The notes beneath the pieces are model-generated. The model was given only the letters and a program-made list of their open reading frames with translations. It searched no databases and was not told the origin of the DNA. Below, piece after piece: positions 4,586-63,054 of a stretch of 64,000 nt of DNA (position 1 is its first letter; every line of letters starts with the position of its first letter). The position numbers were made by a program, and so were the translations under genes. The stretch lies in assembly GCA_002269645.1 (NCBI GenBank), contig NIVC01000102.1, forward strand, positions 701,950-765,949. The letters run 5' to 3'. Origin of the DNA: Macrostomum lignano (Eukaryota).

Positions 4586-4753
4586 ACAGCGAGATGTGAT
4601 CCCAGTAGGGACTGAGGAACTCAAACACGCCCGATTTGATAAACTGGAACAGTTCCGTTTGCCGGCGTTCCCGGCTTCGGAAGGGCGGAAATCCGCACAG
4701 GAGAATGTACGTGATGACGCCAAGAGCCCACAGGTCCACCTCGAGACCATAGC
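4586..4753 (-). CDS. DCLK: Doublecortin-like kinase, exon 4
   Basis: [27 protein letters not shown]...[13 protein letters not shown]; acceptor TGCAG at 4754, donor GTGAGT at 4585. Confidence 0.92.
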
Positions 4754-4809
4754 CTGCAGTAATCAAACATCATTAATCTTTAAATATTACTGTTGTAAAT
4801 ACTTTGACA

Positions 4810-5515: not shown

Positions 5516-5619
5516 TTAAAACCGATATTTTATCCGTCTAATTTCTTTCCAAACAGCAATCCAGTTAGCTATAAGAGAATCAAGGTTACGTCTAGAAGTG
5601 AAGCAATAGCAATACTCGC

Positions 5620-8272: not shown

Positions 8273-8573
8273 CTCATCTACCTATCAGGTTCTTTTGAAA
8301 CTAGAAAATGAAAAACCGAAAGGAAAATCGATAATTTCTAAAAAACACAGCCTATGTTAAAATGATAAAGGTGCACTAAACAAGGTGAGTGCAAGAATTC
8401 TAATAAATTGATTCAACCCCTAGCATCAGGGGCAGGCAAAAGGATTTTTTAAAAATCTCTTACCCTCTAAAACAGGGAACAGAAGAATTGAATATTGACA
8501 GTTAGAAAGCTGCGTGAATGTGTGAACATGCGAACTCAATGCGGTGAGTTGCCAGTAGTCTCAATCAGCTCAC

Positions 8574-8949
8574 CTTTGCCCCAGGGCAGCAGCTCGGCGG
8601 CTCCATACTTCACAGGCTTGAAAGTCTCATTGCCAGCGCACACGTACGCGCCGCCGTCCCGCAGGTCGGAGATGCTTCCAAGGCGTCGGCCGCTGCTGGG
8701 CGAGAACAGCTGCCTGACGCCATTGGGCAGGTACAGATTCTGCGGCATCCGGTACGTCAGGTCCTGCAGCAGGTCGTTGTAGGACACGTACCTGTTCGGC
8801 GTGATGCTCACCTTCTTGCCCTTGAAGAAGATGTCGCCGTTGCAGAAAATCACTATCCGCTTCTGCCGGCGCCGCTCCTCCCTGGCCTGACGTCGGGCGG
8901 CCAGGAGGCTGCCAACATTGCCGCTGTGCTCCATCAGTGCGCTGGTCAT
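8574..8949 (-). CDS. DCLK: Doublecortin-like kinase, exon 1 (first DCX domain)
   Basis: gccATG at 8949; KRIVIFCNGDIFFKGKKVSIT...GVRQLFSPSSGRRLGSISDLRDGGAYVCAGNETFKPVKYG is a DCX domain; donor G|GTGAG at 8574/8573 (phase 1). Confidence 0.9.
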
Positions 8950-25372: not shown

Positions 25373-25579
25373 GCAGATCTCGTACTCCCGATTATTCCGA
25401 TCGCTAAGTAGGATTATAGATAGGCAAAAAATGACTTTTAGGAAAATCAGGAGCAAAATATCTTATTGTTATAACGTATTTTTACGAATATTAAAATAGT
25501 AAAGCATAAAATGTCATAAAATAAAATAAGTTAAATTCTTTATCATTAGCTAAGAAAAGGATTATTGCACAAGCAACGC

Positions 25580-26985
25580 TTAGGTGCTAGGGTGCTTGCT
25601 ATCTGGAGGGTGTTTACTATCTAGGGGGTGCTTGCTATCTGGGGTGGGGTGCTTGCTATCTGGGGTGGGGTGCTTGCTATCTGGGGTGGGGTGCTTGCTA
25701 TCTGGGGTGGGGTGCTTGCTATCTGGGGTGGGGTGCTTGCTATCTGGGGTGGGGTGCTTGCTATCTGGGGTGGGGTGCTTGCTATCTGGGGTGGGGTGCT
25801 TGCTATCTGGGGTGGGGTGCTTGCTATCTGGGGTGGGGTGCTTGCTATCTGGGGTGGGGTGCTTGCTATCTGGGGTGGGGTGCTTGCTATCTGGGGTGGG
25901 GTGCTTGCTATCTGGGGTGGGGTGCTTGCTATCTGGGGTGGGGTGCTTGCTATCTGGGGTGGGGTGCTTGCTATCTGGGGTGGGGTGCTTGCTATCTGGG
26001 GTGGGGTGCTTGCTATCTGGGGTGGGGTGCTTGCTATCTGGGGTGGGGTGCTTGCTATCTGGGGTGGGGTGCTTGCTATCTGGGGTGGGGTGCTTGCTAT
26101 CTGGGGTGGGGTGCTTGCTATCTGGGGTGGGGTGCTTGCTATCTGGGGTGGGGTGCTTGCTATCTGGGGTGGGGTGCTTGCTATCTGGGGTGGGGTGCTT
26201 GCTATCTGGGGTGGGGTGCTTGCTATCTGGGGTGGGGTGCTTGCTATCTGGGGTGGGGTGCTTGCTATCTGGGGTGGGGTGCTTGCTATCTGGGGTGGGG
26301 TGCTTGCTATCTGGGGTGGGGTGCTTGCTATCTAGGGGGTGCTTGCTATCTGGGGTGGGGTGCTTGCTATCTGGGGTGGGGTGCTTGCTATCTGGGGTGG
26401 GGTGCTTGCTATCTGGAGGGTGTTTACTATCTAGGGGGTGCTTGCTATCTGGGGTGGGGTGCTTGCTATCTGGGGTGGGGTGCTTGCTATCTGGGGTGGG
26501 GTGCTTGCTGTCTGGTGGGTACTTGCTATCTGGGGTGGGGTGCTTGCTATCTGGAGGGTGTTTACTATCTAGGGGGTGCTTGCTATCTGGGGTGGGGTGC
26601 TTGCTATCTGGGGTGGGGTGCTTGCTATCTGGGGTGGGGTGCTTGCTATCTGGAGGGTGTTTACTATCTAGGGGGTGCTTGCTATCTGGGGTGGGGTGCT
26701 TGCTATCTGGGGTGGGGTGCTTGCTATCTGGGGTGGGGTGCTTGCTGTCTGGTGGGTACTTGCTATCTGGTGTATGCTTGCTATCTGGGGGTGCTTGCTA
26801 TCTGGGGATGCTTGCTATCTGGGGGATGCTTGCTATCTGGGGGTGCTTGCTATCTGGGGATGCTTGCTATCTGGGGATGCTTGCTATCTGGTGGATGCTT
26901 GCTATCTGGGGGATGCTTGCTATCTGGGGGTGCTTGCTATCTGGGGATGCTTGCTATCTGGGGGATGCTTGCTATTGGGGGATCG
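25580..26985. repeat. G-rich 21-bp minisatellite (GGGGTGCTTGCTATCTGGGGT)n grading into 17-18-bp variants
   Basis: Over 30 consecutive near-identical units. The same family occurs at about 32985-33170, 37810-37880, 57205-57530 and 58950-59450. Confidence 0.97.
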
Positions 26986-43759: not shown

Positions 43760-44238
43760 GAGTATTAAGAATTCTCGGAATAAACAGACTGCCCTTTGCC
43801 GGATCCTGTCACTGTCACGACTGTTGCCTCAATCACATTCGGAAAGAGTTGCTTGATGATTAGCCTGGTGCCGTTACACAGCTTTGGGGAATTTAAATTG
43901 CGCAGTAGCATAACTGGTGCACCCACTTTTAACTGGAGGTTGTGCGATGGCGTTCCAGGAGGCTCTGGAGAGTTCAAGAACTCAATGGGAAACTCCACAG
44001 CATTGTCAGCAGTCATTGTTGTGTCAATTGACTTGTAGCTGTTGGTATTGCCAGGCATCTCCTTGAGCAGCTGGGAGTTGATACTATTAGCTGCGTAATT
44101 CCTGGGACACAAAATGGCTCTTCAGTCAATCAATGTCAGCCAGTCAATGTCAGAAAACATGTGCAGGTTCACGTAGACCTTTGGCTTAAGCTCCTGCACA
44201 GAAGATACGATTGTACCGAATGCAGCAATTGGTGACAG
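43760..44238 (-). mobile_element. Helitron PIF1 helicase remnant, 3' part (interrupted by the LTR element)
   Basis: YKSIDT...EFLNSPEPPGTPSHNLQLKVGAPVMLLRNLNSPKLCNGTRLIIKQL. Confidence 0.9.
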
Positions 44239-45095
44239 TGTAGAGTGTTCTACCTCCCGTTAAAAAAAGGTTAAAAGAAGATAATCGTATAATGCTACTA
44301 TAAGTAAGTAAGTACACGCATGTGCGCCTAAGCTTTGAATGAATCAAGCTAACAGAAAAATATGTTACCAGAATAATACGCCATGAGCCATTTTCCCCTT
44401 TTAGCGCAACACGAGAATTGTAATGATGCTATTTTGGATCAAAAACTTGCCTATAAATACAAGCGATCTGAAGCGGTATCGGAGCCATTCTCCCCACGGA
44501 AGAGGAGCGCTCCGAAGAGGAAGCCTTAGGAGGACTTCCTGATATACCAAGTCAATCGAGACTCGGTCGAGTTGTTGCGGTAAGCCTTCCTTATTTGCGC
44601 CGTTGTGTTAGAGACGTCTCGCTCAAGTCTATTGAGACTTGAGTCCATTTGAGTCTGTTGAGACTCCTGAGTCTGTTTAGACTCCATTGGTTGCAGTCTC
44701 CAGAAGGACTGCCCCTGATAGATCTTAGAGGACTATCAGTGGTTTCCGGAGCTATACCTAGAGTGCATAGAGGCACTGCTAGAAGAAGGAGGCTTAACTT
44801 AGACCGCAGTTTGGCGCAGGGATCCCATTGTTAATTCGGAAGCTTCCCATTGGTCCGAGCGACAGAATCCGGCCGGAACTATTTGAGGAAGAAAGAAGAA
44901 TCGGACCCGATCTACAAACGAAAGTCAGAAGTGACTATACGAGAACAACTGAAGACAATCGAGAACTACTCCGAGAGATCTCCAAAGGACTCAAGGTAAT
45001 TGAATACCTTCTGTTGACTTACTGGGTTGCCTAGCTGCTGAGCTAGCAGTGATTGTTCCTTGATTATCGAAAGTCGGGTAATAAGGAACACATCA
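44239..45095 (+). repeat. 5' LTR (857 bp)
   Basis: TGTAGAG...ACATCA; TATAAATA at 44452; nearly identical to 53960-54815. Confidence 0.97.
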
Positions 45096-45097
45096 AT

Positions 45098-45108
45098 TGG
45101 TGATCTCG
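45098..45108 (+). promoter_or_regulatory. Primer-binding site, probably tRNA-Trp
   Basis: TGGTGATCTCG 2 nt after the LTR; pairs with the canonical tRNA-Trp 3' end (PBS TGGTGACCCCG) using two G-U pairs. The tRNA identity is inferred. Confidence 0.6.
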
Positions 45109-45809
45109 CCCTCTCGGCACTACTCAAACTTTGAGCAATAGCCTGGCCAAGCTATTGTACAGTGACGAAAGAGCGACTTTATTAATTTTGCGCGCACGTG
45201 TTAGAGTTAACACTTTTCAAGTCCGTACGTTTTGAAACTCGAGTAAATTTTGGTGTACAGGTTTGAGCACCTGTCAATTTTGAGTACAGTTTGAGCACGC
45301 GTGTAAATTTTTGTTTTAACGAGCTCGAGCAAGTGTGAGTTTAAAATAAACCGAAATTAAATTCATCGGTACACTGAAAACAAACCGAAAATAAAAGAAT
45401 CGTCGACGCAAAACAAACAAAAAAATAACGGAAACATTTTGCCGGCACAAAAACTAAAACAAAACCGAAATTAATTGAAACTTCGTGAAGAGCGGAGTTA
45501 ATTGACAAAAAAAGGAAAGTCAAAGAAGAGAAAAAAGCCTTTGCAAAGCAAGAAGACAAAGTCCACTTCAACTTGAAGATACACTTTGCGGGACGCCGCA
45601 TAAGTGCGAAATCAGCAAGCGAACAGAACAAGTTCATTTGAGGACAACCAGTGGCAGCAAGCCACACTGCATTCGAAGCCAGCGAATAACAAATCGACAC
45701 CACAAGACAATTCGTTACAGTTGAGGTTTATTCCGAGGCAAACACCACACTGGACGATCCGTTACAAATCGATCCAGATCTTGAACTACCGTTCTACCCT
45801 ATCAACAAC

Positions 45810-46220
45810 ATGGCGCGGCGCAATCCAACGGTACACAGAGACATCAAAGAAACGGTCGGTACTTTCTCGATGGAGAAAGATTTTAACACATTTGTCGACC
45901 ATTTTGACCTGGTATGTAGGGAATACAACCTACAAAATCCAGAAAAGGCACAGCTGCTGCCACCTCTTCTCCAAGGTACTGCGCGAGAAATTTACGGCAA
46001 GCTGGATGCAGCAACACAGCAAAATTATCCAGCACTAATCATTCAACTGCGCGCGCATTTCAACCGTTGCGGCACAAACAGATCAGTGCTGCTGCACAAG
46101 TTACATAACAGAAGGATGCAAGCAACGGAATCCTTCCTCGCCTTTGTGGACGATATCCGCCAGATAATTAAGGCACTGCATCAGCCACCGCTGCAAGCTG
46201 CGGATCAGCAGCGGAGTTAG
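45810..46220 (+). CDS. gag: Gag N-terminal (capsid-like) part; frame breaks to the long ORF near 46172-46220
   Basis: First ATG after the LTR; FSMEKDFNTFVDHFDLVC...LQGTAREIY...RRMQATESFLAFVDDIRQII is a retrotransposon Gag pattern. Confidence 0.8.
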   Translation: MARRNPTVHRDIKETVGTFSMEKDFNTFVDHFDLVCREYNLQNPEKAQLLPPLLQGTAREIYGKLDAATQQNYPALIIQLRAHFNRCGTNRSVLLHKLHNRRMQATESFLAFVDDIRQIIKALHQPPLQAADQQRS

Positions 46221-49200
46221 CCGCAAGAGAGCGACAACGATTGATGGACCGTGAACAAAACCTCATCCAACACGTAATAAACAATGCACAGCCGTCACTG
46301 CGGGATAGACTTTTGCGCGAGAACATTGAAACCGAGGAAGACCTTTTACGGTGCGGAATGCAGTGGGAAGCAAGCGCTCCACTAATGACAACCGGCAACA
46401 ATGAAGTGCAGAAACTGACACAGCAACTAAACAAGCTGATGCAACATCAAACAGCCGTTATCGCCGAACAAAAAAGACGAAACGAACAAGCCTCAGCCAG
46501 ATGTTACTACTGCGGACAAGAAGGACATTACCAGATTAATTGTCCTCATTGGTCAACAAGATACGACAAGCCACGACAGATATTCAACAATCAGAAGCCG
46601 CAGAAACCATGGCAGCAATATCAAAATCGCCAACAACAAGGCATAAGACGCTTCGGAAATGATAGACGCTTCGGAAATAATGACCGCTCCGGAAATGATG
46701 GCCGCTTCGGAAACGAAGGCCGCTTCAGAAATAATGGCTACAGGCCACGCAACGCCAGGTACGCACAAAGACAGCCAACGCAAGCAATGCCACGATACGC
46801 GAATGCCATCACGTACACACCGGAAAATGAGCAGCAGGAACAGCAAGTGTTCACAATTGACGACTTGGAAATGGACTTCACAGTCCCGGAACTTGACATC
46901 AGCTTGATCGAAAAGAAGACGACGCACGAGGACAACACTGACAACACAGAAGAGGCGAATGAAACCGAAATGATCGAATTAAAAGAGACCACCGGAGACA
47001 GCAGAGAAAACAGGAAGAAAGTAAATCACAAGAAAAGGGAGGAGACGGAGAGCGACACCGGCAACGAAGAAAAGATGAAGACTGGCAGAGAGAACAACTA
47101 TGAATCGACAACAGTGGATGACGACAAAACAAGCACAAAAGACAAAGAAATGAAGGAAGAAGAAGAATGTATAAGTTACGGCAACGATCACGACTGCGAG
47201 GTGCATGATGACACGAACGGATACCGAGCCGAAGAAGGAATGCAGGAAGAACTGAGAGCGGAAAATCTAAGCTCCGACAGCGATCAAGGCTACGAGGTAC
47301 AATGGAAAGATGAAGAAATGGAAAAAGAACAAATGAAAGAAAAGCCGAGTTCCGACAGCGACGAATGCTACGAGATCCGATACAAACGAAATGGTGAAGC
47401 CTATATTCAAACGGTCGACTACAAGGCAGAGAAAAGATACCAAACGCAATGGAGTGAAACAACGGAAACATCGGAAGAAGCTGCAGACGAAGATACTGAC
47501 ATAACCAAAGAGCAAAGCAAATCAGAAGCCTTCCACCTGAATCAGCCAATGGAACAACCGAAAGAATACGATGCGGACATGGAGGATAACGAATGGCAAT
47601 CGCAGCCAATGCCAGCAAAGACAACGGCAAGGTCCAAGAAGTGGAAAAACTGGCTATACTGGATCATCGTGATACTACTGATAGCAGTAGTCGCCAAAGC
47701 AACGGCAACGGAAAAGCCAATGATTTGTCCAACGGATGCGCATATCCAACCGATGATCTACAAGATACCAACCGACATCAAATGCAGCTACTTCAAGACA
47801 AACCAGACGAAGCCAAAGAAGATTACACTCGATCTCTACAAGGCTAACATCAAGAAGCATCGACAACATGGAATAGTGTGCTTCAGAGACAAGCACCTGG
47901 TGGAAAAAGTTTGGCGCGGACAATGGAACCGGATCCGATTTAAACAACATGAACTACATGTGTCACACGCGGAATGCCTACAATGGAACCAAACACTGTT
48001 TTCAAAGGATGGTGAACTGGAACCAGATGAGAAGGTCGGCAACGCACAGCTGTTCAGAACAAAGAATTCAGCCAACGGTCGATACATTCACTTCTTCGGA
48101 AAATGGAAAGAATATATGGCACGCAACAGCTACTTGATCAGAAATATTCCATTCTACCACAATCCTTTTGAAAAAATGGAGTCGCTACAACTGCAATTAA
48201 GCGACTGCCGATACAGCAAAGGATGGTGTCCAACGCCGATACTGCGGAATGAGGAACTATACAGCTTACCGTTGAGTCCAACATATCATCAAGACTATCG
48301 ATGGCAAATTATACGCAGAGGCGACTCACGATATGAAGAACCATCTAAGTCACGACAATACTTCTTCGCGTGGGAAGTTGAGCCGGAAATTGACTGCAAG
48401 CTTCAAAAGTATCACACAGTTGAAAGAGGTCTACTGTCAAATACGTTTTTGGCAAAGTCAGGAGACTTGGCCTTGACGTTTCAAAAGAAGCCGGTTGAAC
48501 AGGAACTCAAATGCAAGGATACGGACAAGACGCTATTCATCTCGGAGCAAGAAATACCAGTCTATGTAAAGGATGACGACAAGCGAACCTTCCTGACGAT
48601 CATAAACGGAACGTATCAACAACAAGAAAGGCAACGACGCGACATCGAACGTCCCAAACTGGTGTCAAACCGACTACTGTCAGCAAAGATAACGGCTTTG
48701 GATCACAATCTACACAACCAGTTAAACCACTTGCATCGAACACTGGTACAGCTAACTTGCAAAATGCACGCAATCAACTTAAATTATGCCAGACAAAACT
48801 ACTATGTCAACCCTACGATGACTTTTCGTAAAATCACCGGAATGACGAACGTTTTGGCAGTTCCAATATACGAGCATCTGTTGATATACAAGTGCACGCC
48901 GATACAGCACTTCAACATCTTGCCGTCAAACACGTCAACAACCTGCTACGATAAGCCAAGGATTGAAGCGTTCTACGAAGGAAAACGAATTCAAGGATTC
49001 TTGGACACGGTACACAACATCATCGTTGGCACCGCAATACCGAGACCTTGCACCACGGCAGCAAACTACTATCAACTGGACAATGCACTACACGTCATCA
49101 AAACAACTGGAACGACAGCAAACATCACAGAACCGGAAGTAATCGTCGACGAAAACTACGACATGGAGGATTTGAAGATCCGATTCAACAGAACGAAGTA

Positions 49201-52200
49201 TACGCCATTCGCCGATATCCAACTTGACGAGATAACACCAGGATGGACGATCAACGACTTCTTGCAAGCGTTCATCACCCAACGCAAGATGATTCACCAG
49301 CTGTTCACAAGAAAGGACAAAGGAACCGGGACAGGAAGATTTCCCGTCCTTGTTTCAATGGACAGCGCCATCAAATCATTTTGGACAAACAGCTTCTGGG
49401 AGCTGCTCAATGGAAGAGGCAGCCTATATCAAGGCTTCATCTTCTACAGCGCCTGCGTTGTTTGGATAGTCACGGCGATCTTTATCATCTCGTCGATAGT
49501 ACGATGCTTCAACAACACTTGTCCCACAGCGAAACGAACAGTGAACGCCATCATGCAGAAGATACCAAGGGAAGAAGACAACAACTTGGAATTGACAGAG
49601 GATACACGTCAAGAAACTCAAGGACAGCCGACACCAGCAACGCGGCTATATCCATCGATTCCGACAACACCAACAGCACCGAGAATGCAGCCACCTACAT
49701 ATCAGCCCGAACAACACGAGCCAAAATGGCCGGAAAACTACGTCTGTACGCTACACGCCGAGATTGGCAAAGCAATGGCTCAGGTCATTGTCAACAACTT
49801 GCCATGTCGAGCACTACTGGATTCAGGCAGCTCAATCACAGTCATCTCGCAACAATTATGCAACAAGCTACGACTCGCGGTACGACCAGCAGCAATCGCA
49901 GTTGCAGGAGCAGGAGGACATTCGCTCAACATCCTAGGAAAAGCAGATATTGACTTGAAAATTGCTAATAAACAGCTGACGGTCCCGACGTACATCATCG
50001 ACAGACTACCAAACCAAGACGTCATCGTTGGAATAGACACGTTCAAACAGCTTCGACTACCATTGACCTTCGACTTCAACAAGCAAACGTTTAGGATCGA
50101 CACGGTGGAGCAACCACTGATCAATCAGATTCGAGTACTACCGAAAGTAACTCTGCAGCAAGATGTCATCATCCAGCCTGAAAGCGCATGTTGGGTCAGA
50201 GCGAAAGCGACCAGCGCGGCAGATGAAGCAATGATATTTGATCCGCACAGGAGAGTCACGGCGAAACATCAAATCATGATGCCTACGGCACTAGTGCTGG
50301 TTGCAAAAGATAAACAGCTGCCAGTACAAATCTTCAACCCGAACGCGGAAATGGTTCATCTACGACAAGGAATGTGCATCGGTCATCTCAACACTCAGGC
50401 ATCGGTTATGCTGATTGAGCACGCGACTCCACGAATAACGGAGGAAGAGTTCCAAAAGAAAATCAACCTGGACGACAGCCCGATTACGGAACAACAAAAG
50501 AAGAAAGTTCGACAACTGTTGTGGAAGTACAACGAAGCCTTCTACCATCATGATTACGACATCGGACGAGCTAAAGACATTAAACAGGAAATCAAGCTTC
50601 TACCGCACACGGAACCAATTCAGTGCAAGCCGTACCCGATCGCCAAGCATCTGCAACAACACTTTGACGAAATCATCGATAAAATGCTAAAGCACGGCAT
50701 CATCAGCAAAGCTATTTCGGCTTACTCCTCACCGTGCCTACTGGTACAAAAGAAGGAGACTAACGAAAGACGACTCGTATGCGACTTCAGACTGTTGAAC
50801 AAGTACATACCGACGGATCAGCAAAGCCTGCCGAAGATCTCCGAACTATTAGCGAAGCTCAACACGGCAAAACTGTTCACGGTATTCGACCTACGTCATG
50901 GATTTTGGCAAATAGAAATCGACAAGGAATCGCGCCAGTACACAGCTTTCAAGACCTACAATGGACAAGTCTACGAGTACAATCGATCGCCGATGGGACT
51001 TAGCAACAGCCCAGCAACGATGAGCCGACTGACAGCATACATGCTTGCAGGATGCACGAACCTGCTGCACTATGTCGACGACATTTTGGCCTATGGAGAG
51101 GATTTCGAGCGACTCTACGAAGCTACGGAGAAGGCCCTGGCGCTCATTCAACGCCAAGGTCTTAAGCTGCAACCGACGAAATGCAAATTCTTCCGAGACA
51201 ACGTGCGTTACCTAGGACACCAAGTGACAGCCAGAGGAATTTCACCGGACCCAGACAACGTGGAAAAGGTGAAGAAGTTTCCTACGCCAACCAGTATAAC
51301 GAAGGTCCAATCATTCCTTGGACTTGCGCAATACTTCAGGAAGTTCTTACCTAACTTCGCAAAGACAGCAAAGCCACTGTACGACCTGCTCAAGTTCGAC
51401 AAATGGAAGCAAGACAACTGGACACAAAGACAACAAGAAAGTTTCGACGAAATTAAACGACAGCTGACATCAGACAAACTGCTACAGCATCCAGACTTCG
51501 ACAAGCCCTTCATCATCGAGACAGACGCCTCAGGAACGGGACTCGGAGCAGTCCTACTACAGGAAACCGAGGACAAGAAGGAACGACCTATTGCCTACGT
51601 CAGTCGAGCACTCAAACCAAATGAGACAAAGTGGTCAGCTACGGAACGAGAGCTACTAGGAGTCTTGTTCGCCCTGCGACAGTTTCATTACTACATCTAT
51701 GGTTCTCCAATACAGACGATAGTACGCACGGATCATGCACCATTGACCTACGTCGTAACTACAAAAGGACAGACCAACAACCGACTTATCAGGATGACAC
51801 TCAAGATCCAGGATTACAACTACAAACTCGTCTACAAACCAGGAATTACCAACAAAGCCGCGGACGCCCTGTCAAGAGCCTATGAAGTCAACGCCATTCA
51901 TCCAATCCCTAACATCAAGGAGTTGGTGGATGAAACCGAGCGCAACAACTTCTACCAAGCGGTTAAAGACGACGACAAGAACATCAAACTCAGTCCCATG
52001 GAACGAAAATTCCTACGCAAGCAACGACAACACCTAACAATCAATAAGTCACGGCTCTACTGGATGAGCGACAATAAACCTAAGATCTACGTACCATATT
52101 CGTTTCGGCAAGCAATTCTCAACGAGCTGCACGACAACCCACTCGCTGGACACCTGTCGGCCGCAAAGACCATCGCGAGAGTGGAACAATACTACTTTTG

Positions 52201-53284
52201 GCCAACTATGTATGGCGACATCAAGCAGTATTGCAACAACTGCCATTCATGTGCTGCATCAAAGACAGGACGACGACAGAAACCGCAGCTACAGTCCATC
52301 CCGAAGTCGACTACAATGGACTGTCTAAGCATCGACATCACCGGACCACTGCCACCGAGCTGTCTCCAGGGCATCGCCTACACCTACATCCTAACCGCCT
52401 TGGACATCTTCTCGAAGTTTGCTATTGCCATACCGATACCGGACATCACAGCTCAGACAATAGCAATGAGTTTCTACAATGAAATCATTTGCAAGTACGG
52501 CACGCCGAAGAACCTCACCTCGGACAACGGATCGCAGTTTACGTCTCAACTATTTCAGCAAGTTGTGAAGATTCTCAACATTACGCAGATCTACACATCG
52601 ACCTACAATCCGAAGGCAAACATGGTTGAACGGTTTCACCGCAACCTGCACGAGATGATTACACATTTCGCGCACCAACAGCCGGAAGACTGGATCATCT
52701 ACCTGCAATCTGTAACAATGGCCTACAACAGCGCTATTCATCGATCAACGGACAATACGCCATTCTTCCTAATGTTTGGACGAGACTTCCAACCGCCGAA
52801 TCTGCTCGCACAGCAATTACTACCATCGCAGTACGTGGAAGTACCGACTTCCATTCAGAAATTCGTCACGCAACTACACCTCGCATGGAAGATCGCTAAG
52901 CACAACATTGACAACCAGGTGGCTCTGACCACCGGCAACGACGCGAGATCGACAACCCTGACGGCCGGCGACATCGTTTACCTACACTACCCGCCACAGC
53001 AGACGCATAAACACGCGCAGAAGTACAAAGGACCGTATCGAGTGGTCCAACTAACTTCACCGACAACGGCGCGTTTGGCTAATGTGCAAGATCCTCACCA
53101 ACATCAGTTCTACGTGCACATCCATCGACTAAAAAAGATTAACACGGACACGGCAACATTTCTGCCGTCACTGGACAACGCGGATCGCACGCGTTCAACG
53201 AACCGCCACATCGCGACGAAGCACGAGGAGACTCAAACGACAGAGGTGAGCCAGCCACATGGCTACAACCTACGACCACGCTAA
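46172..53284 (+). CDS. pol: Gag C-terminus (CCHC) - Env-like glycoprotein - protease - RT - RNase H - integrase polyprotein
   Basis: Frame is open from 46172. CX2CX4HX4C at 46502-46543; hydrophobic signal 47651-47707; RQRR 48629-48640; TM about 49436-49501; DSG 49820; YVDD 51071; ETDAS about 51518; HHCC and DDE integrase with GPY near 53030. Confidence 0.95.
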   Translation, partial: GTASATAASCGSAAELAARERQRLMDREQNLIQHVINNAQPSLRDRLLRENIETEEDLLRCGMQWEASAPLMTTGNNEVQKLTQQLNKLMQHQTAVIAEQKRRNEQASARCYYCGQEGHYQINCPHWSTRYDKPRQIFNNQKPQKPWQQYQNRQQQGIRRFGNDRRFGNNDRSGNDGRFGNEGRFRNNGYRPRNARYAQRQPTQAMPRYANAITYTPENEQQEQQVFTIDDLEMDFTVPELDISLIEKKTTHEDNTDNTEEANETEMIELKETTGDSRENRKKVNHKKREETESDTGNEEKMKTGRENNYESTTVDDDKTSTKDKEMKEEEECISYGNDHDCEVHDDTNGYRAEEGMQEELRAENLSSDSDQGYEVQWKDEEMEKEQMKEKPSSDSDECYEIRYKRNGEAYIQTVDYKAEKRYQTQWSETTETSEEAADEDTDITKEQSKSEAFHLNQPMEQPKEYDADMEDNEWQSQPMPAKTTARSKKWKNWLYWIIVILLIAVVAKATATEKPMICPTDAHIQPMIYKIPTDIKCSYFKTNQTKPKKITLDLYKANIKKHRQHGIVCFRDKHLVEKVWRGQWNRIRFKQHELHVSHAECLQWNQTLFSKDGELEPDEKVGNAQLFRTKNSANGRYIHFFGKWKEYMARNSYLIRNIPFYHNPFEKMESLQLQLSDCRYSKGWCPTPILRNEELYSLPLSPTYHQDYRWQIIRRGDSRYEEPSKSRQYFFAWEVEPEIDCKLQKYHTVERGLLSNTFLAKSGDLALTFQKKPVEQELKCKDTDKTLFISEQEIPVYVKDDDKRTFLTIINGTYQQQERQRRDIERPKLVSNRLLSAKITALDHNLHNQLNHLHRTLVQLTCKMHAINLNYARQNYYVNPTMTFRKITGMTNVLAVPIYEHLLIYKCTPIQHFNILPSNTSTTCYDKPRIEAFYEGKRIQGFLDTVHNIIVGTAIPRPCTTAANYYQLDNALHVIKTTGTTANITEPEVIVDENYDMEDLKIRFNRTKYTPFADIQLDEITPGWTINDFLQAFITQRKMIHQLFTRKDKGTGTGRFPVLVSMDSAIKSFWTNSFWELLNGRGSLYQGFIFYSACVVWIVTAIFIISSIVRCFNNTCPTAKRTVNAIMQKIPREEDNNLELTEDTRQETQGQPTPATRLYPSIPTTPTAPRMQPPTYQPEQHEPKWPENYVCTLHAEIGKAMAQVIVNNLPCRALLDSGSSITVISQQLCNKLRLAVRPAAIAVAGAGGHSLNILGKADIDLKIANKQLTVPTYIIDRLPNQDVIVGIDTFKQLRLPLTFDFNKQTFRIDTVEQPLINQIRVLPKVTLQQDVIIQPESACWVRAKATSAADEAMIFDPHRRVTAKHQIMMPTALVLVAKDKQLPVQIFNPNAEMVHLRQGMCIGHLNTQASVMLIEHATPRITEEEFQKKINLDDSPITEQQKKKVRQLLWKYNEAFYHHDYDIGRAKDIKQEIKLLPHTEPIQCKPYPIAKHLQQHFDEIIDKMLKHGIISKAISAYSSPCLLVQKKETNERRLVCDFRLLNKYIPTDQQSLPKISELLAKLNTAKLFTVFDLRHGFWQIEIDKESRQYTAFKTYNGQVYEYNRSPMGLSNSPATMSRLTAYMLAGCTNLLHYVDDILAYGEDFERLYEATEKALALIQRQGLKLQPTKCKFFRDNVRYLGHQVTARGISPDPDNVEKVKKFPTPTSITKVQSFLGLAQYFRKFLPNFAKTAKPLYDLLKFDKWKQDNWTQRQQESFDEIKRQLTSDKLLQHPDFDKPFIIETDASGTGLGAVLLQETEDKKERPIAYVSRALKPNETKWSATERELLGVLFALRQFHYYIYGSPIQTIVRTDHAPLTYVVTTKGQTNNRLIRMTLKIQDYNYKLVYKPGITNKAADALSRAYEVNAIHPIPNIKELVDETERNNFYQAVKDDDKNIKLSPMERKFLRKQRQHLTINKSRLYWMSDNKPKIYVPYSFRQAILNELHDNPLAGHLSAAKTIARVEQYYFWPTMYGDIKQYCNNCHSCAASKTGRRQKPQLQSIPKSTTMDCLSIDITGPLPPSCLQGIAYTYILTALDIFSKFAIAIPIPDITAQTIAMSFYNEIICKYGTPKNLTSDNGSQFTSQLFQQVVKILNITQIYTSTYNPKANMVERFHRNLHEMITHFAHQQPEDWIIYLQSVTMAYNSAIHRSTDNTPFFLMFGRDFQPPNLLAQQLLPSQYVEVPTSIQKFVTQLHLAWKIAKHNIDNQVALTTGNDARSTTLTAGDIVYLHYPPQQTHKHAQKYKGPYRVVQLTSPTTARLANVQDPHQHQFYVHIHRLKKINTDTATFLPSLDNADRTRSTNRHIATKHEETQTTEVSQPHGYNLRPR

Positions 53285-53404
53285 AGTTTCGAGAACAACC
53301 CCGTGTAGTGACCGGGATAAAGAATAGCACTACAGCTTCGCAAGCTTGTCGTAAAAGGCGACTAATCCGAGCGACACAAAGACAGCGACAAATTGACGAC
53401 AATT

Positions 53405-53779
53405 ATGGGCAACGCACTGTCGAAACAGGCGCCCCAGCCTCAGCAGCTATATGACTGCCCGATATGTTTAACTGATGACTTGGCTGTCAAGCCACCGACT
53501 ATTTGCATCAACGAACATAAAGTTTGCGGACAATGTTTAAGCGATTCACATTATATTCAGCCATGGCAGAATTGTCCCCTCTGTAGAGATAGTTTGCGAC
53601 AATGCGCCTATTGTTATTCTTGGCGCACGTTTCAATATTGTAACCACCAACATTTTATTTGCATGCACTGTTTGAAGCAAACCGCTAGTAGGGGCGTTAT
53701 AGGATGCCCCTTATGTAATAGTATGCCGCGAGACTGCACGTTTCGAAAGTGGTGTCGGATCAAACCTGATGCCACTTGA
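53405..53779 (+). CDS. Accessory ORF: N-myristoylation motif plus two RING-type zinc fingers (124 aa)
   Basis: ATG at 53405 gives MGNALSK; CPIC-x12-C-x3-H-x2-C-x2-C-x12-CPLC and CAYC-x8-C-x3-H-x2-C-x2-C-x11-CPLC. Confidence 0.8.
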   Translation: MGNALSKQAPQPQQLYDCPICLTDDLAVKPPTICINEHKVCGQCLSDSHYIQPWQNCPLCRDSLRQCAYCYSWRTFQYCNHQHFICMHCLKQTASRGVIGCPLCNSMPRDCTFRKWCRIKPDAT

Positions 53780-53944
53780 TGTCTACGCGATATTCGAGTT
53801 TTGACCGCAATATGTACTGAAAAGTTTTTAGAGTTTTGACCAAACCCTCGCTTCACTAGACGCGCACAAAATCAATTGTTTATTTCCTATATTAACTGAT
53901 CACCACAGAATTTTATTGTTAAAACTCGGGACGAGTTTTTTCGT

Positions 53945-53956
53945 AAAAAAGGGAGA
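53945..53956 (+). promoter_or_regulatory. Polypurine tract
   Basis: AAAAAAGGGAGA 3 nt before the 3' LTR. Confidence 0.85.
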
Positions 53957-53959
53957 TTT

Positions 53960-54815
53960 TGTAGAGTGTTCTACCTCCCGTTAAAAAAAGGTTAAAAGAA
54001 GATAATCGTATAATGCTACTATAAGTAAGTAAGTACACGCATGTGCGCCTAAGCTTTGAATGAATCAAGCTAACAGAAAAATATGTTACCAGAATAATAC
54101 GCCATGAGCCATTTTCCCCTTTTAGCGCAACACGAGAATTGTAATGATGCTATTTTGGATCAAAAACTTGCCTATAAATACAAGCGATCTGAAGCGGTAT
54201 CGGAGCCATTCTCCCCACGGAAGAGGAGCGCTCCGAAGAGGAAGCCTTAGGAGGACTTCCTGATATACCAAGTCAATCGAGACTCGGTCGAGTTGTTGCG
54301 GTAAGCCTTCCTTATTTGCGCCGTTGTGTTAGAGACGTCTCGCTCAAGTCTATTGAGACTTGAGTCCATTTGAGTCTGTTGAGACTCCTGAGTCTGTTTA
54401 GACTCCATTGGTTGCAGTCTCCAGAAGGACTGCCCCTGATAGATCTTAGAGGACTATCAGTGGTTTCCGGAGCTATACCTAGAGTGCATAGAGGCACTGC
54501 TAGAAGAAGGAGGCTTAACTTAGACCGCAGTTTGGCGCAGGGATCCCATTGTTAATTCGGAAGCTTCCCATTGGTCCGAGCGACAGAATCCGGCCGGAAC
54601 TATTTGAAGAAGAAAGAAGAATCGGACCCGATCTACAAACGAAAGTCAGAAGTGACTATACGAGAACAACTGAAGACAATCGAGAACTACTCCGAGAGAT
54701 CTCCAAAGGACTCAAGGTAATTGAATACCTTCTGTTGACTTACTGGGTTGCCTAGCTGCTGAGCTAGCAGTGATTGTTCCTTGATTATCGAAGTCGGGTA
54801 ATAAGGAACACATCA
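53960..54815 (+). repeat. 3' LTR (856 bp)
   Basis: Matches the 5' LTR; followed by ACAG. Confidence 0.97.
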
Positions 54816-55810
54816 ACAGCCCCTCCTCAGCACTGACCTCCAAGAGATTAATAGAAAATTGATGAGAAGTTTCATCGCCATAAACTGCAGTCCTCATGTT
54901 GATTCGCATGTGGAGCTTTTCATCTGATGGCCACAGATGCAAAGATGAGGCATGCATTTAGTCTCATCTGCTGGGTTGCCACGCGAAATTACGGCCAACG
55001 TCTGTCTAAAGTCTGCGGAGAGCAGCAGGGTGACACCACCCATGAGCTGGTTGTTGCCGCGCAGATACTTTAGCGTCAGGCTGAGTGCTTCAAAAGCCAG
55101 TTTGTGGGACATGGTACATTCATCCCAGACAATAAGCTTGCAGGCTTGCAACACTCTGACAGTGCCACTGTTCTTCTTGATGTTGCAAGGTAGTTTTTCA
55201 GCTCTTGACAGATCAAATGGCAATTTTAGTGTTGAGTGAGCAGTGCGACCACCTGGAAGTAGCGTGGCTGTGATTCCAGAGGAAGCGGCAGCAACTGCAA
55301 TCTCGCCTCCATGTCTAATCTTTGACAGAAGGAGTTTGATCAGTAAATTTTTTCCTGTCCCCCTGGAGCATCCTAGAAAAGTATTCCTCCTACATTGTTA
55401 TTCACTCTTTGCAGTACCTCTTGGTACGCTTCTGCCTGCTTAGGTAAAAGACGGGGTTCATTTTCCTCAATGAACTGACAAAGCTGCTCGCGGTCAAAGC
55501 TGGTTTCTCGCAGCATCTTCCTACTCAAATTCTCTTGTCGATGCTTCTCGGCTGTCGGACGTCCAAACATGTTCAATTGGGACGATCCGTCTCGTCTCGT
55601 CTCGTTATGGCAGACGAGATAAGTTTTGTTCGCCCATCATGCTTCAGTCAGCTTCTTTTCGGATCTTGGGCGCCGAAACCGCGTACGTCATAGACGTAGC
55701 TGCAGGCCATATCAATGTCATGATGCTTTTATGTCGATGGGCATTGAAACGTCACCGTCGAGGTCCTCAGGCCCGTCTGAACGCATGTCTGGCCCCGCAA
55801 CTTGACATCC
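54816..55810 (-). mobile_element. Helitron PIF1 helicase remnant, 5' part
   Basis: MLRETSFDREQLCQFIEENEPRLL, DAPGGTGK (Walker A) and IVWDE (Walker B); joins 44238 across the LTR insertion. Confidence 0.9.
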
Positions 55811-56659
55811 CGGGCTGGCCAGGTGGAATCCACCTTGGACCCACACTATGCTGGCCAGTACTGGCTGTGGACTTCGATTTTGTATTTTCTCATGCGCTAC
55901 TCCGTACTATTTTGAGTAGTGCATAATATATACACCAAAATTCATTATGCTGAGTACACAAAAATGAAACTAATTGCTGATAGGGAATAGTCTGATTGCT
56001 AAGTAAACTTATAGATTGCAGAAAAAAGACTTTTCTGAAAAGCAGGATCAGAAGATCGAATCGTTATAGTTTCCTTCCTATATACAAAAAATGAGTTGTC
56101 TGTGGGTATGCGATAGATTTCAGAAAAATTGGCTCAACCGATTTTCTTCAAACTTGCACCATTCGATCAGAAATTTTCCTGGGACGGTACATGCATCTTG
56201 GCTAAGAAATTGCTCAATGTTAAAGGGATTAAATATTCGAAAAACATGCTTTTTTGCAAAGGTCAAGCAGCTCTTTCGACCTGAAATGCATTGTAAGAAT
56301 GGTAGAGAAAAAACTGACTGACTGAATTTCAATTCTGATAAAGATTGCATCACAACAAGTTGAAAACATTGTCAAAGAAATGCACACACGACTTGATTTA
56401 AATTGCGTAACCAATATTGCTAACTTGAACTGAGACTGATACTGGCTGACTGAGAAATTGATTGTGTCATAACTTTTTACTTTAATTGACTTAATTTGCC
56501 TTGCCGAATTGAATTATAAGGGCCACAATTCATGTACTCCAATTGAAAAGAGATAGCCTAGATACAAACAGACTGGACTGCCAACGTAGCGACCTGGGTT
56601 CGAATCTTAGTAGTGAAAAATTTTTTTTTATTAAAACACCTTGAAAACACGAAACTGCT

Positions 56660-58900
56660 AAACATAAAAAAGCACAATGTCAAACATAAAAGAGGCACCA
56701 TGTCAAACATTACATGGGCACCATTTAAAACATATACGTGACTCTATGTCAAACATTAAAGAGCCACCATGTAAAACATAAAAGAGTCACCATTTCGAAC
56801 ATTAAAGAGCCACCATGTCAAACATTAAAGAGCCACTATGTCGAACATTAAAGAGCCACCATGTCGAACATTAAAGAGCCACCATTTCGAACATAAAAGA
56901 GCCACCATTTCGAATATTAAAGAGCCACCATGAAGAAAATTAAAGAATCACCATATCGAACATAAAACAGCCACAATGTAGAATATTAAAGAGCCACTAT
57001 GTCGAACATTAAAAAGCCACAGTGTCAAACGCTAAAGAGCCACTATTTCGAACATTAAAGAGCCACCATGTCAAACATAAAAGAGCCACCATGTCGAACA
57101 TTAAAGAGCCACCATGTCGAACATTGAAGAGCCACCATTTAGAATATTAAAGAGCCACCATGTCAAACATTAAAGAGCCACTATGTCAAACGTAAAAGTG
57201 ACCAAGATGCTTGCTATTTGGGGATACTTGCTATCTGGGGGATGCTTGCTATCTGGGGGATGCTTGCTATCTGGGATGCTTGCTATCTGGAGGATGCTTG
57301 CTATCTGGGGGATGCTTGCTATCTGGGGGATGCTTGCTATCTGGGGGGTACTTGCTATCTGGGGGATGCTTGTTATCTGGGGGATGCTTGCTATCTGGGG
57401 GATGCTTGCTATCTGGGGGGTGCTTGTTATCTGGGGGATGCTTGCTATCTGGGGGGTGCTTGCTATCTGGGTGATGCTTGCTATCTGGGGGATGCTTTCT
57501 CTCTGGGTGATGCTTGCTGTCTTGGGATGATTTCTTTTTGCATTGCACTTCATTTGAGCAGTTTGTCGGTTTTCTTTGTGAAGGTTTTTTTGTATGTCGA
57601 ATATTAAACAGCCACCATGTCAAACATAAAAGAGACACCATGTCAAACATAAAAGAGCAACCATGTCGAACATTAAAGAGCCAGCATGTCAAACATTAAA
57701 GAGCCACCATGACAAACATTAAAGAGCCACCATGTCAAACATTAAAGAGCCACCACGTCAAACATTAAAGAGCCACCATGTCGAACATTTAAGAGCCACT
57801 ATGTCAAACATTAAAGAGCCATCATGTCAAAAATTAAAGAGCCACCACGTCAAACATTAAAGAGCCACCATGTCGAACATAAAAAGAGCCACTATGTCAA
57901 ACAAACACGTGACTTCATGTCAAATATTAAAGAGCCACCATGTGAAACATACACGTGACTCCATCTCAAACATTAAAGAGCCACTATTTCAAACATAAAA
58001 GAGCTACCATGTCAGACATAAAAGAGCTACCATGTCAAATATACAAAAGCCATCATGTCAAACATAAAACAGCCACATATACGTGACTTAATGTCAAACC
58101 TTAAGGAGCCACCATGTCAAACATTAAAGAGCCACCATGTCGAACATTAAAGAGCTACCATCTCAAACATAAAAGAGTCACCATGCCAAACATAAAAGAG
58201 CCACCATGTCAAACATAAAAGAGCCACCATTTTAAACATATACGTGACTCCATGTCAAACATTAAAGCGCCATCATGTCAAACATATATGTGACTGCATG
58301 CCAAACATAAAAGAGCCACCATGTCAAACATAAAAGAGCCACCATGGCGAACATTAAAGAGCCACCATGTCAAACATAGAAGAGACACCATGTCAAACAT
58401 AAAGAGCCACCATGTAAAATATAAAAGAGCTACTATGTAAAATATAAAAGGGCCATCATGTCAAACATTTACGTGACTCAATGTCAAACATTAAAGAGCC
58501 ACCATATCGAACATTAAAGAGCCACCATATCGAACATTAAAGAGCCACCATGTTAAACATAAAAGAGCCACCATGCCAGACATAAAAGAGCCACCATGTC
58601 AAACATATACGTGACTCCATGTCAAACATTAAAGCGCCATCATGTCAAACATATATGTGACTGCATGTCAAACATAAAAGAGCCACCATGTCAAACAACT
58701 AAGCCACCATGTCAAACAAAGAAGAGACACCATATCAAACATAGAAGAGCCACCATGTCAAACATAACAGAGACAACATTTCAAACGTAAAAGGGCCGCC
58801 ATGGTAAACATAAAAGAGCCACTATGTCAACATTAAAGAGCCACCTTTTTAAACATAAAAGAGACACCGTTTCAAACATAAAAGAAGTGTCATGCCAAAC
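56660..58900. repeat. 23-bp satellite (TAAAGAGCCACCATGTCAAACAT)n, interrupted at about 57205-57600 by the G-rich 18-mer array
   Basis: Period of 23 seen directly (57061, 57084). Confidence 0.95.
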
Positions 58901-59568: not shown

Positions 59569-60194
59569 TCCAATATACTAAAAATGAAAATCTTGCTTGT
59601 TTGTTTGTACGCAATCGATTAGAGAAAAAATGGCTGGACCGATTTTCATGAGACTTGCACTGTTCGATCAGAAATTTTCCCGTGACAGTACATGCATCGT
59701 GGCTAAGAAATTGCTTGATGCTAAAGGCATTAAATATTCGAAAAACATGCTTTTTTGCAAACGTCAAGCAAACTTTTCGACTTGAAATGCATTGTAAGAA
59801 TGCTAGAGAAAAAATTGACTGGTTGATTCTGATTCTGAAATAGATTGCATCATAACTGAATTGTAACTCCAACTTGAATTGCGTCGCAGTATTGAAAATG
59901 CAGTGTGGAAGCGTAGCACCAGACGTGATTTAGATTGCGTAACCATATTCTCAACATTAATTGAGACTGATGCTGACTTGCCTGGGAAATTGATTATGTC
60001 ATAACTGCTTCGTGAGTGAGTGTTGAATTATATGAGTGCTACAATTTCAATTATAAATTCGATAAGATCTAGCCTAGATGTGAACAGACTGGACTGCTAA
60101 TGCAGCGACCTGGCTTCGAATCTTAGTAGCGAAAATTTTTTTATTAAAAGCTTTTATTCAAAAAATAATAAAGGACTAAAGGCGTAATGTAAAG

Positions 60195-61300
60195 AATCAT
60201 AGAATTGTCATGCAAAAAATCATAGAAGCGTCATGTAAACAATCCTAGAAGCGTCATGTAAACAGTCATAGAAGCGTCATGAAACAATCATAGAAGCGTT
60301 ATGTAAAATCATAGAATCGTCCTGCAAAAATCGTACCGGTAGAAGCGTCATGTAAAAATCATAGAAGCGTTATGTAAAAATCATAGAAGCGTCATGTAAA
60401 AATCATAGAAGCGTCATGTAAAAATCATAGAAGCGTCATGAAACATCATAGAAGCGTCATGTAAAAATCATAGAAGCGTCATGTAAACAATCCTAGAAGC
60501 GTCATGCAAACAATCATAGAAGCGTCATGTAAAAAATCATAGAAGCGTCATGTAAAAAATCATAGAAGCGTCATGTAAAAAATCATAGAAGCGTCATGTA
60601 AAAAATCATAAAAGCGTCATGTAAAAATCATAGTAGCGTCATGTAAAAATCATAGAAGCGTTATGTAAAAATGATAGAAGCGTCATATAAAAAATCATAG
60701 AAGCGTCATGTAAAAATCATAGAAGCGTTATGTAAAAATCATAGAAGCGTCATGTAAACAGTCATAGAAGCGTCATGAAACAATCATAGAAGCGTCATGA
60801 AACAATCATAGAAGCGTCATGTAAAAATCATAGAAGCGTCATGTAAACAATCATAGAAGCGTCATGTAAACAATCATAGAAGCGTCATGTAAACAATTAT
60901 AGAAGCGTCATGTAAACAATCATAGAAGCGTCATGTAAAAAATCATAGAAGCGTCATGTAAACAATCATAGAAGCGTCATGAAACAATCATAGAAGCGTC
61001 ATGTAAACAATCCTAGAAGCGTCATGTAAACAATCATAGAAGCGTCATGTAAAAAATCATAGAAGCGTCATGTAAAAAATCATAGAAGCGTCATGTAAAC
61101 AATTATAGAAGCGTCATGTAAAAAATCATAAAAGCGTCATGTAAAAATCATAGAAGCGTCATGAAACAATCATAGAAGCGTCATGTAAAAATCATAGAAG
61201 CGTCATGTAAAAAATCATAGAAGCGTCATATAAAAATCATAGAAGCCTCATTTAAAAACTAAAGAAAGTGTCATTTAAAAAATTAAGAAGCATCATGGTA
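60195..61300. repeat. 22-23-bp satellite (ATCATAGAAGCGTCATGTAAAA)n
   Basis: Seen directly. Confidence 0.96.
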
Positions 61301-63054
61301 GAATAAAAGAAGCGTCATATCAGACATGAAAGGTGTCATGTAAAAATTAAATGAAGCTATAGTGCTGTGCTAGGGAGAAAAACTGAGACGTCAAGGCTCA
61401 CAGAGAATAACTGAGATTTTGGGGGCGTTTCTGAGATGTCAAAGCAACAGTCAGAAGCTACTTCAAAGTTCATTTACTTTACTCAATTTTTTTATTACAT
61501 TCTTTGTTGGCTCGGCCACGGGGGGCGCTGATAGAAGAAGAGTCATGTAAAAAATAAAAGTAGCACTATGTATACATAAAAGAAAAGTCATGTCGAAGTT
61601 AAAAGATTCATTTGGGAATTGCTACGATGTCAAAGCTTGGAGGGAATCGTTATAGTGCTGTGATTCTTAAAGAAAGAATCACTAAAATGTCAAGGCTTAG
61701 GGGAGAAGAATTGCTGAGATTCAAGGCTTTAGGTTGGGTTAAAGTTAGGTTAGGTTAGGTGTGGGTTGAGGGTTATATTTTATCGGGTTTCAAGGTTAAC
61801 GGGGGATTTTTCAGATTTCTAGGTTTATGGAGGCCATCGCTGACATGTCAAGGCTTACGGGGGGAATAGCTGAGATGTCAAGGCTCACGGGGGTATAAAT
61901 GAGATTTCAAAGCTAAAGTCAGAAGCTACATGTAGTTTATTGAAAACTTTTTATTACATTATTTGATGCCTCCTCAGGGGAGGGATCGCTGATAAAAAAG
62001 CGTAATGTAAAAAATAAAAGAAGCTTCATGTCGAAGTTAAGAGATTCATTTGGGAATCCATTGCATTGCTGAGATGTCAAGGGGGGAGTTGATATGTTAA
62101 AGCTTGTGGGGGGGATTACTGACATGTCAAGGCTTACAAGGTTTGACAGGAGATTTTTTAAGATTTCAAGGATACATGTAGCTTATTAAAAAAACGTGTA
62201 TTGCATTTCTTTGGCTCCCCAACGGGGGGCGTAGATTGCTAGTCTCAATCTATAATTTTATCTCCTACCTACCTAATTATGTATGTTGTTAAAGCCAAGT
62301 TGTAATCAATTGTGTTCAATCTTACCCTCCTTACCTGTGTACGTTGCAAAAACCAATATTTAATCAATCGTTTTCAATCTCACTTTCTCAAATCGTTCTA
62401 ATAAAATCCTGACGATGCACCATGGCGTGCGAAACGCGTTGGAGTTATTAGAAATTGCAATCATATTCAAATGTTGATAATAAGCTTTCTAGAGATGAGA
62501 AGAGAGATGAAAGAAAAGAGGGATGAGGGAAGATACGAGAGAAGAGGGGAGAGAGGAGAGAGGGAAAAAGAGAATTGAGATGAGAGGAGAGACGAGGGAC
62601 GAGAGAGAAGAGAGGAAACAGAAGAGAAGATAGAAGTTTCAAAGGATCCAAGGGACGTAGGGAGAGTCAGGAAGAGGCCAGAGTTTGCCAATACATGTTT
62701 TAGAGTCAGACAGACATTGCCTGACATTCTGTGCAGCACCCCAACTAACAATATCAAATGTTTGCCTCAAATACTAATTTTACACGAATGTAATTCATTT
62801 TATGTTTACCTCTATCCTACTAACTATTAACAAGTTTTTGTTTGAGTATGGCCTCAGATTTCCGAATACATGCAAAAATAGTTCCGGGGATTGGAATTCC
62901 CCGGGTCCAAAATCCGCTGGTTTCAACAGCTTGTATATATGTCCCCGTCCCCGTCCCTCGTCCACGTCCAGAGCGACTAGCAAGCGGAGTTTCTGCGTGA
63001 CTTAGCTTAATACACACTGCTTTACTTTATTTCTCTCTGCTCGAAATCTGTCAG

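Follow-up and report, generated by a model that had tools for sequence, protein, structure and literature searches.

The window analysed here, a 64,000-nucleotide stretch of the Macrostomum lignano genome, contains an LTR element (Table 1) whose LTRs, primer-binding site (PBS), polypurine tract (PPT) and order of protease, reverse transcriptase (RT), RNase H and integrase are those of an errantivirus of the Ty3/gypsy group. In its single gag-env-pol frame, about 600 residues lie between the CCHC knuckle and the protease, with a hydrophobic segment at each end (aa 469-490 and 1063-1090), a furin-like RQRR at aa 796 and cysteines, and the atlas clusters nearest to this region are class III fusion proteins (Monjiviricetes_fusion, score 0.90, to be taken as a lead only). 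With this putative class III env between gag and protease, the arrangement of gB-type errantiviruses, the element is, as judged from its sequence, a M. lignano gag-env-pol errantivirus with a gB-type env. In the window copy, a short deletion near position 46210 shifts the frame and disrupts gag. Because an env is already present between gag and protease, the open reading frame (ORF) studied here, ORF A, is an extra gene and no env substitute; the initial annotation, made from the letters alone, had put it in the usual env slot, which is correct for its position only.

The element has seemingly been inserted into a minus-strand helicase-like reading frame (43765-44238 and 54816-55240), which we take from its motif to resemble Helitron/PIF1. 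Elsewhere in the window we observed long minisatellite arrays with units of 21-23 bp (154-1100, 4692-5600, 25478-26390, 56569-58130 and 60154-61320), and a dispersed repeat occurs four times (near 13761, 28309, 34572 and 40679).

Table 1 Features of the LTR element and its 3' cassette (positions are those of the window).
Feature	Position	Strand	Remark
Target-site duplication, ACAG	44235-44238 and 54816-54819
LTR element	44239-54815	+	LTRs 99.8% identical
5' LTR	44239..45095	+	conserved donor-like sites at 44580 and 44996
PBS	45098..45109	+	12-mer is that listed for Mlig_errantivirus_2
gag, 5' part	45810..46243	+	starts MARRNP, without Gly2
Remainder of single gag-env-pol frame	46244..53284	+	CCHC knuckle, env, protease, RT, RNase H, integrase
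Env, class III (gB-type), lying between gag and protease	47648..49513	+
Conserved non-coding RNA element	53300..53362	+	H-type pseudoknot (53300-53334) plus two small hairpins; candidate acceptor 53335 lies inside
ORF A, 124-aa truncated allele of the 222-aa RING-RING-helical accessory gene	53405..53779	+
MGNALSK start, N-myristoylation-like	53405..53425	+	one ORF A subclade only
RING1, aa 18-60	53456..53587	+	linchpin Arg61 next; predicted active, E2-binding
RING2, aa 67-104	53603..53716	+	RING1 duplicate without linchpin Arg; predicted structural
Helical-domain remnant	53780..53877	+	in frame, stop-broken, then deletion
PPT	53945..53956	+
3' LTR	53960..54815	+

ORF A sits between the integrase stop and the PPT, and its description in the initial annotation, a 124-aa frame starting with MGNALSK and containing two C3HC4 fingers, was confirmed by the translation and by the ligand sets (C18/C21/C34/H38/C41/C44/C57/C60 in RING1 and C67/C70/C79/H83/C86/C89/C101/C104 in RING2). 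It is not intact, as had been supposed: a first stop falls at codon 125 and a second one near codon 145, the remnant behind the first stop still resembles a helical domain found in other copies (31 of 50 residues identical to the copy at locus L033, 26 of 52 to that at L031), and a deletion of about 1 kb has removed the remaining helical domain together with the entire paralogue B. Sister copies encode a full-length 222-aa ORF A, composed of two RINGs and the helical domain, followed by the 210-aa paralogue B, and three such genes are present at L036, L037 and L042; the 222-aa parent gene, its two to three paralogues, the env inside the polyprotein and the pseudoknot described below had all been missed in the first reading. 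Alignment with these copies identifies the window ORF as the first of the two to three paralogous genes, shortened at its C-terminus.

A genome search with ORF A returned at least 145 matches (150 scored of 212 candidates), 11 of them identical, including that of the window itself, by which count it is no chance ORF. Among the best 30 loci, 16 stop at codon 125 (one of these also at codon 114), seven are without this stop and end at codon 145 (one of these also at codon 82), and seven have a different 3' end, five of which read 222 aa; truncated forms of A thus outnumber full ones by 23 to 7 in these 30 closest loci. Among the matches listed, 20 (residues 1-90) carry one stop of a shared type, and in the single translated member of this set the stop falls at codon 71 and gene B is missing. 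The M. lignano assembly is described as redundant in the accessible part of PMC12801592, so that all such copy counts are inflated.

Distant subfamilies, with integrases 74-76% identical to that of the window, keep the cassette with two or three genes. The comparison of dN/dS across copies, proposed as a check in the initial annotation, gave values well below 1 (0.06-0.43) in all 48 computable pairs, in the RING and helical parts alike (60 pairwise comparisons of 22 natural sequences, 12 of them saturated; Nei-Gojobori, a rough method at high dS), and by this measure the twin-RING gene family is under purifying selection. Backbones that are 99.9-100% identical bear either a full or a truncated cassette and the dS of ORF A is 1.2-1.5 versus 0.26-0.45 for the adjacent integrase (three to four times as high), from which it follows that the cassette is exchanged as a unit. 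It is also dispensable in cis, judging by genomic copies with a stop-broken A and no B. An unbroken polyprotein frame was present in two of 20 other fetched copies, both with a full cassette, and most of the polyprotein breaks are frameshifts at private positions, which may be assembly errors.

Several further copies deserve mention. At L040:4379-7474 and L050:2981-6076, an internal deletion has left a 1,008-aa frame in which gag plus half of env runs straight into the tail of the integrase, without protease, reverse transcriptase or RNase H, while A, B and the pseudoknot remain intact; the signature of this deletion occurs in eight matches among those listed, two of which were examined. On contigs C2121, C1130, C87, C3033, C4009 and C272, fragments of several subfamilies are densely packed on one strand, with many 3' cassettes among them; these clusters could be piRNA-cluster-like traps or hot spots of nested insertion. 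A 335-aa ORF adjoins the three-gene cassette on the opposite strand at L037:2913-3947, and a divergent copy contains nested ORFs (L035:4813-5907 and 8373-9452) that resemble a DIRS-type element with a tyrosine recombinase motif.

Outside the M. lignano genome, homologues with the full architecture were found (P0003-P0005, E 1e-33 to 8e-38, and P0153); the matches of P0004 in the M. lignano genome are 23-37% identical, the one with the best E-value 30%. A word-indexed homologue search with the 222-aa query passed none of its 93 candidates and a profile search two of 537. A profile search also recovered a UniRef entry of M. lignano that is nearly identical to paralogue B.

Seven of the eight RING1 ligands are invariant in all 22 aligned sequences and the eighth is kept in 21, as in a C3HC4 RING fold. 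The first finger has a SIAH-like spacing, as the initial annotation had pointed out, namely C-x3-H, and the Sina_RING profile matches 19 of 22 family members (E 0.01 or better). For the window ORF itself, the Pfam RING matches are weak and fail to reach their curated cut-offs (zf-RING_2 at E 0.003; Sina_RING at E 0.02, with 15.5 bits versus a cut-off of 29.3). Profile matches to RING1B, SIAH1, TRIM5 and TRIM21 were obtained (E 2e-5 to 6e-5), and an AlphaFold2 model built on the 22-sequence alignment reached a pLDDT of 87.9 and a pTM of 0.79. Structure searches placed RING E3 domains first for residues 10-73 (Z 5.2, rmsd 2.0, 48 aligned), with matches confined to RING1, modest scores and no full-length match. 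The profile and structure search suggested in the first reading therefore upheld the RING fold, although with sub-cut-off Pfam scores for the window and a Z of about 5, which is ordinary. The RING1 and RING2 profiles align with each other (hhalign, probability 94.8%), and on this profile evidence RING2 is a duplicate of RING1; the residue next to the last cysteine of RING1 is an arginine in all 22 aligned sequences and in five of five outside homologues, whereas at RING2 it is so in none of the 22. A cationic linchpin residue positions the donor ubiquitin in RING E3s, according to the part of PMC12326332 that was available.

The helical domain carries an invariant Trp-Pro and is all-helical in its model (pLDDT 81.8 when modelled alone). 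It shares no Pfam family, scored E 1.1 or higher against a viral fold library, and gave nothing clear in a fold search of its own, where the best match, the N-domain of ATP synthase delta/OSCP (Z 5.9, rmsd 3.2, 84 aligned), was tied with unrelated helical bundles, which is no proof of a new fold. A prediction of an A-B complex with alignments left out scored 0.00 and has no bearing either way. RBR ligases have an IBR domain between RING1 and RING2, and an RBR ligase was rejected as a candidate, since the six residues that separate C60 and C67 leave no room for it.

Directly upstream, a 63-nt block precedes ORF A in all sampled subfamilies. In its pseudoknot, the hairpin loop pairs with a downstream strand; 98% of cells are paired, compensatory changes occur at two of seven pairs, and the pairing exceeds all 500 shuffles and all slid controls (15 sequences), though the covariation equals about two independent events because the 15 sequences are related. 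A 20-mer of the block occurs 99 times in the genome versus zero times for its reversed control, and 97 of these 99 sites are followed downstream, at no more than 150 nt, by an ORF A match. A search of Rfam yielded no family above the gathering threshold (two chance-level matches, E 2.8 and 4.9), and a search with an RNA model over 18 sequence sources gave seven matches, all of them element-derived. The nested folding energy of the spacer was unremarkable (z 0.29) by a method that ignores pseudoknots. The block (53300-53362) is far more conserved than the flanking coding sequence and may be the crossover point of cassette exchange. In a decayed copy (L080:3200-4730), the changes in the RNA block are mostly C-to-T and G-to-A, as judged by eye, a pattern that suggests methylation- or deaminase-driven decay.

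How the cassette is expressed was approached through splice sites and RNA. The donor sites proposed in the initial annotation stand as motifs (a 44580-like site in four and a 44996-like site in five of eight diverged-LTR loci). The proposed acceptors fared less well: 53308 is without its AG in five of 15 aligned spacers, and 53335 is conserved in 15 of 15 yet lies inside the paired structure. Contigs from three runs that we guess to be RNA (three studies) span the 3' end of the window type, and among the joints listed they contain no splice joint into A or B; the spliced mRNA postulated for ORF A found neither an LTR-to-ORF-A joint nor a leader end among the joints and ends listed. For gene B, the ATG follows a CAG in 11 of 11 copies, directly in nine and two bases later in two, and splice-acceptor-like sites precede it. 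The UniRef gene model of M. lignano, which may be a prediction and not a transcript, connects a B-type ATG with an LTR exon whose end is the 44580 donor. About 30% of M. lignano genes are trans-spliced and operons exist in this species, so that host trans-splicing offers a second route to gene B expression (PMC8629364, accessible part). One contig of run X3 starts at the G before the ORF B ATG, which fits the LTR donor exon or the spliced leader because both end in G (for the leader, the same part of PMC8629364), but since contigs cannot reveal starts this is a hint only. A 1,271-nt contig of run X1 is unbranched across the ORF B start site; run X2 gave no coverage of most of gene B, which carries no weight. 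Stop-codon read-through from the integrase was considered and rejected, as the ATG is preceded, 13 codons upstream, by an in-frame stop and the distance from stop to pseudoknot varies among subfamilies.

We consider it probable, though well short of certain, that the full-length proteins are element-encoded E3 ligases acting in trans, with RING1 as the catalytic and RING2 as the structural unit and the helical domain serving the substrate. The RING fold, the invariant Arg61 and the purifying selection lend inferential support to this reading. RING1 is predicted to bind and activate E2~ubiquitin and RING2 to pack on it as a structural partner, while the helical domain would, at a guess, select the substrate. 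A host protein, probably a defence factor, would be marked with ubiquitin for the benefit of the element, a target suggested by analogy with viral RING ligases. Gene B may be read from an RNA in which the LTR donor, or else the spliced leader, is joined to it, gene A expression may depend on the pseudoknot just upstream, and a myristoyl anchor would, within one subclade, direct ORF A to membranes. Action of the product in trans would let copies with shortened or broken cassettes still spread and would thereby explain the spread of cassette-less copies. A more far-reaching picture, in which an invertebrate endogenous retrovirus of complex-retrovirus layout encodes its own two to three E3 ligases of a new RING-RING-helical type, swaps the cassette behind a new structured RNA switch and destroys host silencing factors, with the truncated alleles being cheaters or membrane-anchored modulators, is put forward tentatively and seems rather unlikely to be right in all its parts.

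For the allele in the window, the chances are even that the 124-aa ORF is a non-functional relic riding on an active backbone. It has lost the helical domain, which is under selection elsewhere, Gly2 is changed in two of the 16 copies of its type, a related 144-aa type has lost a zinc ligand in four of seven copies (pN/pS 0.38), and another subfamily has spread despite a broken ORF A. The LTR pairs of 14 of the 16 truncated-type copies are 99.2-100% identical, so the truncated form has spread recently and has had little time to decay, which makes its open frame weak proof of function. Against a relic speak all zinc ligands and Arg61, retained in 16 of 16 copies, the truncation point, which in the AlphaFold2 model lies directly past the helix that follows RING2, and the seven synonymous versus five non-synonymous variants in codons 1-108 (pN/pS 0.17), a ratio biased downwards because the loci were chosen by protein similarity. 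For a form with both RINGs and no putative substrate domain, relic and altered function are therefore about evenly balanced.

An improbable alternative for the family as a whole is that A and B regulate the RNA of the element itself, through Rev- or CERV-like export or splicing control exerted via the pseudoknot, with the RINGs as scaffolds and not ligases. The position of the pseudoknot hairpin directly upstream of ORF A matches (at the 97 sites mentioned) would suit such a role, as would the strong LTR donors, in the presence of which the genomic RNA has to avoid being spliced. The Cer1 element of Caenorhabditis elegans exports RNA through a spliced, cysteine-containing accessory protein, CERV (PMC10309623, accessible part), but the architecture of that protein, with H, M and G domains, differs from that of A and B. 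Moreover, only RING1 has the invariant linchpin arginine, as would be expected if it served E2 activation, and a single export function would presumably need no two or three paralogues.

MGNALSK is an N-myristoylation-like motif, and the arenavirus Z protein is small and has a Gly2, a RING and a late-domain motif. The initial annotation had accordingly offered two roles for ORF A, an E3 ligase or a matrix-like adaptor that compensates for an unmyristoylated Gag; the fold, Arg61 and the selection described above favour the ligase, and the Z-like membrane adaptor we regard as very unlikely. The likeness to Z lies in the small size of the window ORF, its Gly2 start and its RING, and Gly2 and Ser6 persist in four ORF A subfamilies that have diverged from each other's reference to 68-75% identity, next to a Gag that is without Gly2. 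In contrast to Z, however, ORF A has two RINGs, a native length of 222 aa with the helical domain included, and no PTAP, PSAP or PPxY late-domain motif by reading of the 124-aa and 222-aa sequences. Gly2 occurs in only five of 22 aligned sequences, all of one ORF A subclade, and in none of five outside homologues, which argues against a Z-like matrix role; ORF A is without it in subfamilies whose Gag starts identically (MARRNP), and copies with a broken ORF A have spread. The Z fold is absent from the fold-search rows displayed, an absence that amounts to no exclusion. The distribution of Gly2 is compatible with a myristoyl anchor specific to one lineage, but incompatible with an essential role as matrix.

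That the ORFs are captured fragments of host RING genes carried as neutral cargo, for which the SIAH-like C-x3-H spacing, suggestive of a cellular or viral source, might speak, is most improbable and largely refuted by a dN/dS far below 1 across subfamilies, by intron-free ORFs that mostly lie beside element sequence in the fetched loci (yet seven of 14 checked loci are without a nearby pol match) and by a helical domain that in the model is no SIAH-type beta-sandwich.

With a selected multi-paralogue RING cassette in a recently active errantivirus, and with a flatworm host amenable to transgenesis and RNAi, transposon counter-defence can be tested directly, and the identity of the substrate would reveal what restricts the element. 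The pseudoknot adds an RNA element that is linked to the cassette and uncatalogued. The 124-aa ORF alone carries less weight, being a shortened allele.

Compared with known ligases, ORF A shares the C-x3-H RING spacing of SIAH/Sina, in which the RING is followed by zinc fingers and a beta-sandwich substrate-binding domain; ORF A has instead a second RING and an all-helical domain, with no C-terminal beta-sandwich in the model. Viral RING E3 ligases act against host defence, and those of herpesviruses (ICP0), baculoviruses (PE38) and giant viruses have the RING fold in common with ORF A and make up the weak viral fold matches (E 0.009 or higher) as well as atlas leads; in contrast to the present family, they are encoded by large DNA viruses and not retroelements, and the match spans one RING only, never the full length. 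Retroviral accessory proteins such as Vif and Vpu recruit host ligases and encode no RING. Among the accessory genes that animal LTR elements carry, few have, to our knowledge, an established function.

Flatworm errantiviruses of the GAG-ENV-POL, gB type have been reported by Chary and Hayashi (PMC13524379), who list in the accessible part of their study a Mlig_errantivirus_2 with an LTR of about 864 nt, 16 copies and the designation ENV_HSV. The window element shares with it the host species, the gB-type env between gag and pol and the PBS 12-mer, and most likely belongs to this family, which is itself thus already catalogued. The 3' cassette and the pseudoknot are features of the window element for which we found no description under Mlig_errantivirus_2; the main text of PMC13524379 contains none of the whole-word terms 'RING', 'zinc finger', 'additional ORF' and 'accessory', and term look-ups in the available parts of PMC6338049 and PMC5408684 gave no mention of RING. 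Accessory genes of gypsy elements are known, whereas a separate multi-paralogue RING-RING-helical cassette or the pseudoknot was nowhere described in our literature search (with Repbase, the supplements of PMC12801592 and an earlier classification of M. lignano LTR elements outside its scope). CERV, like A and B, is an accessory protein of a gypsy lineage, one related to that of the window element, and it is made from a spliced mRNA, as proposed here for gene B; unlike A and B, it has exons in common with gag, a single Cys loop and no RING (PMC10309623, the part cited above). Also comparable are the giant Burro/GYPSM1 gypsy elements of planarians, which, as far as the accessible part of PMC6431247 describes them, also have env in frame between gag and pol and carry an AIR1 'RING Zn-finger' match along with MATH, BIR, BCL2 and SUMO-like domains related to ubiquitination or apoptosis, proposed there to interfere with host systems. 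Both are thus flatworm gypsy elements with ubiquitination-related domains; in Burro, however, these domains lie mostly within a 4,873-aa polyprotein, whereas the family described here has separate 3' tandem-RING-helical genes in two to three paralogues.
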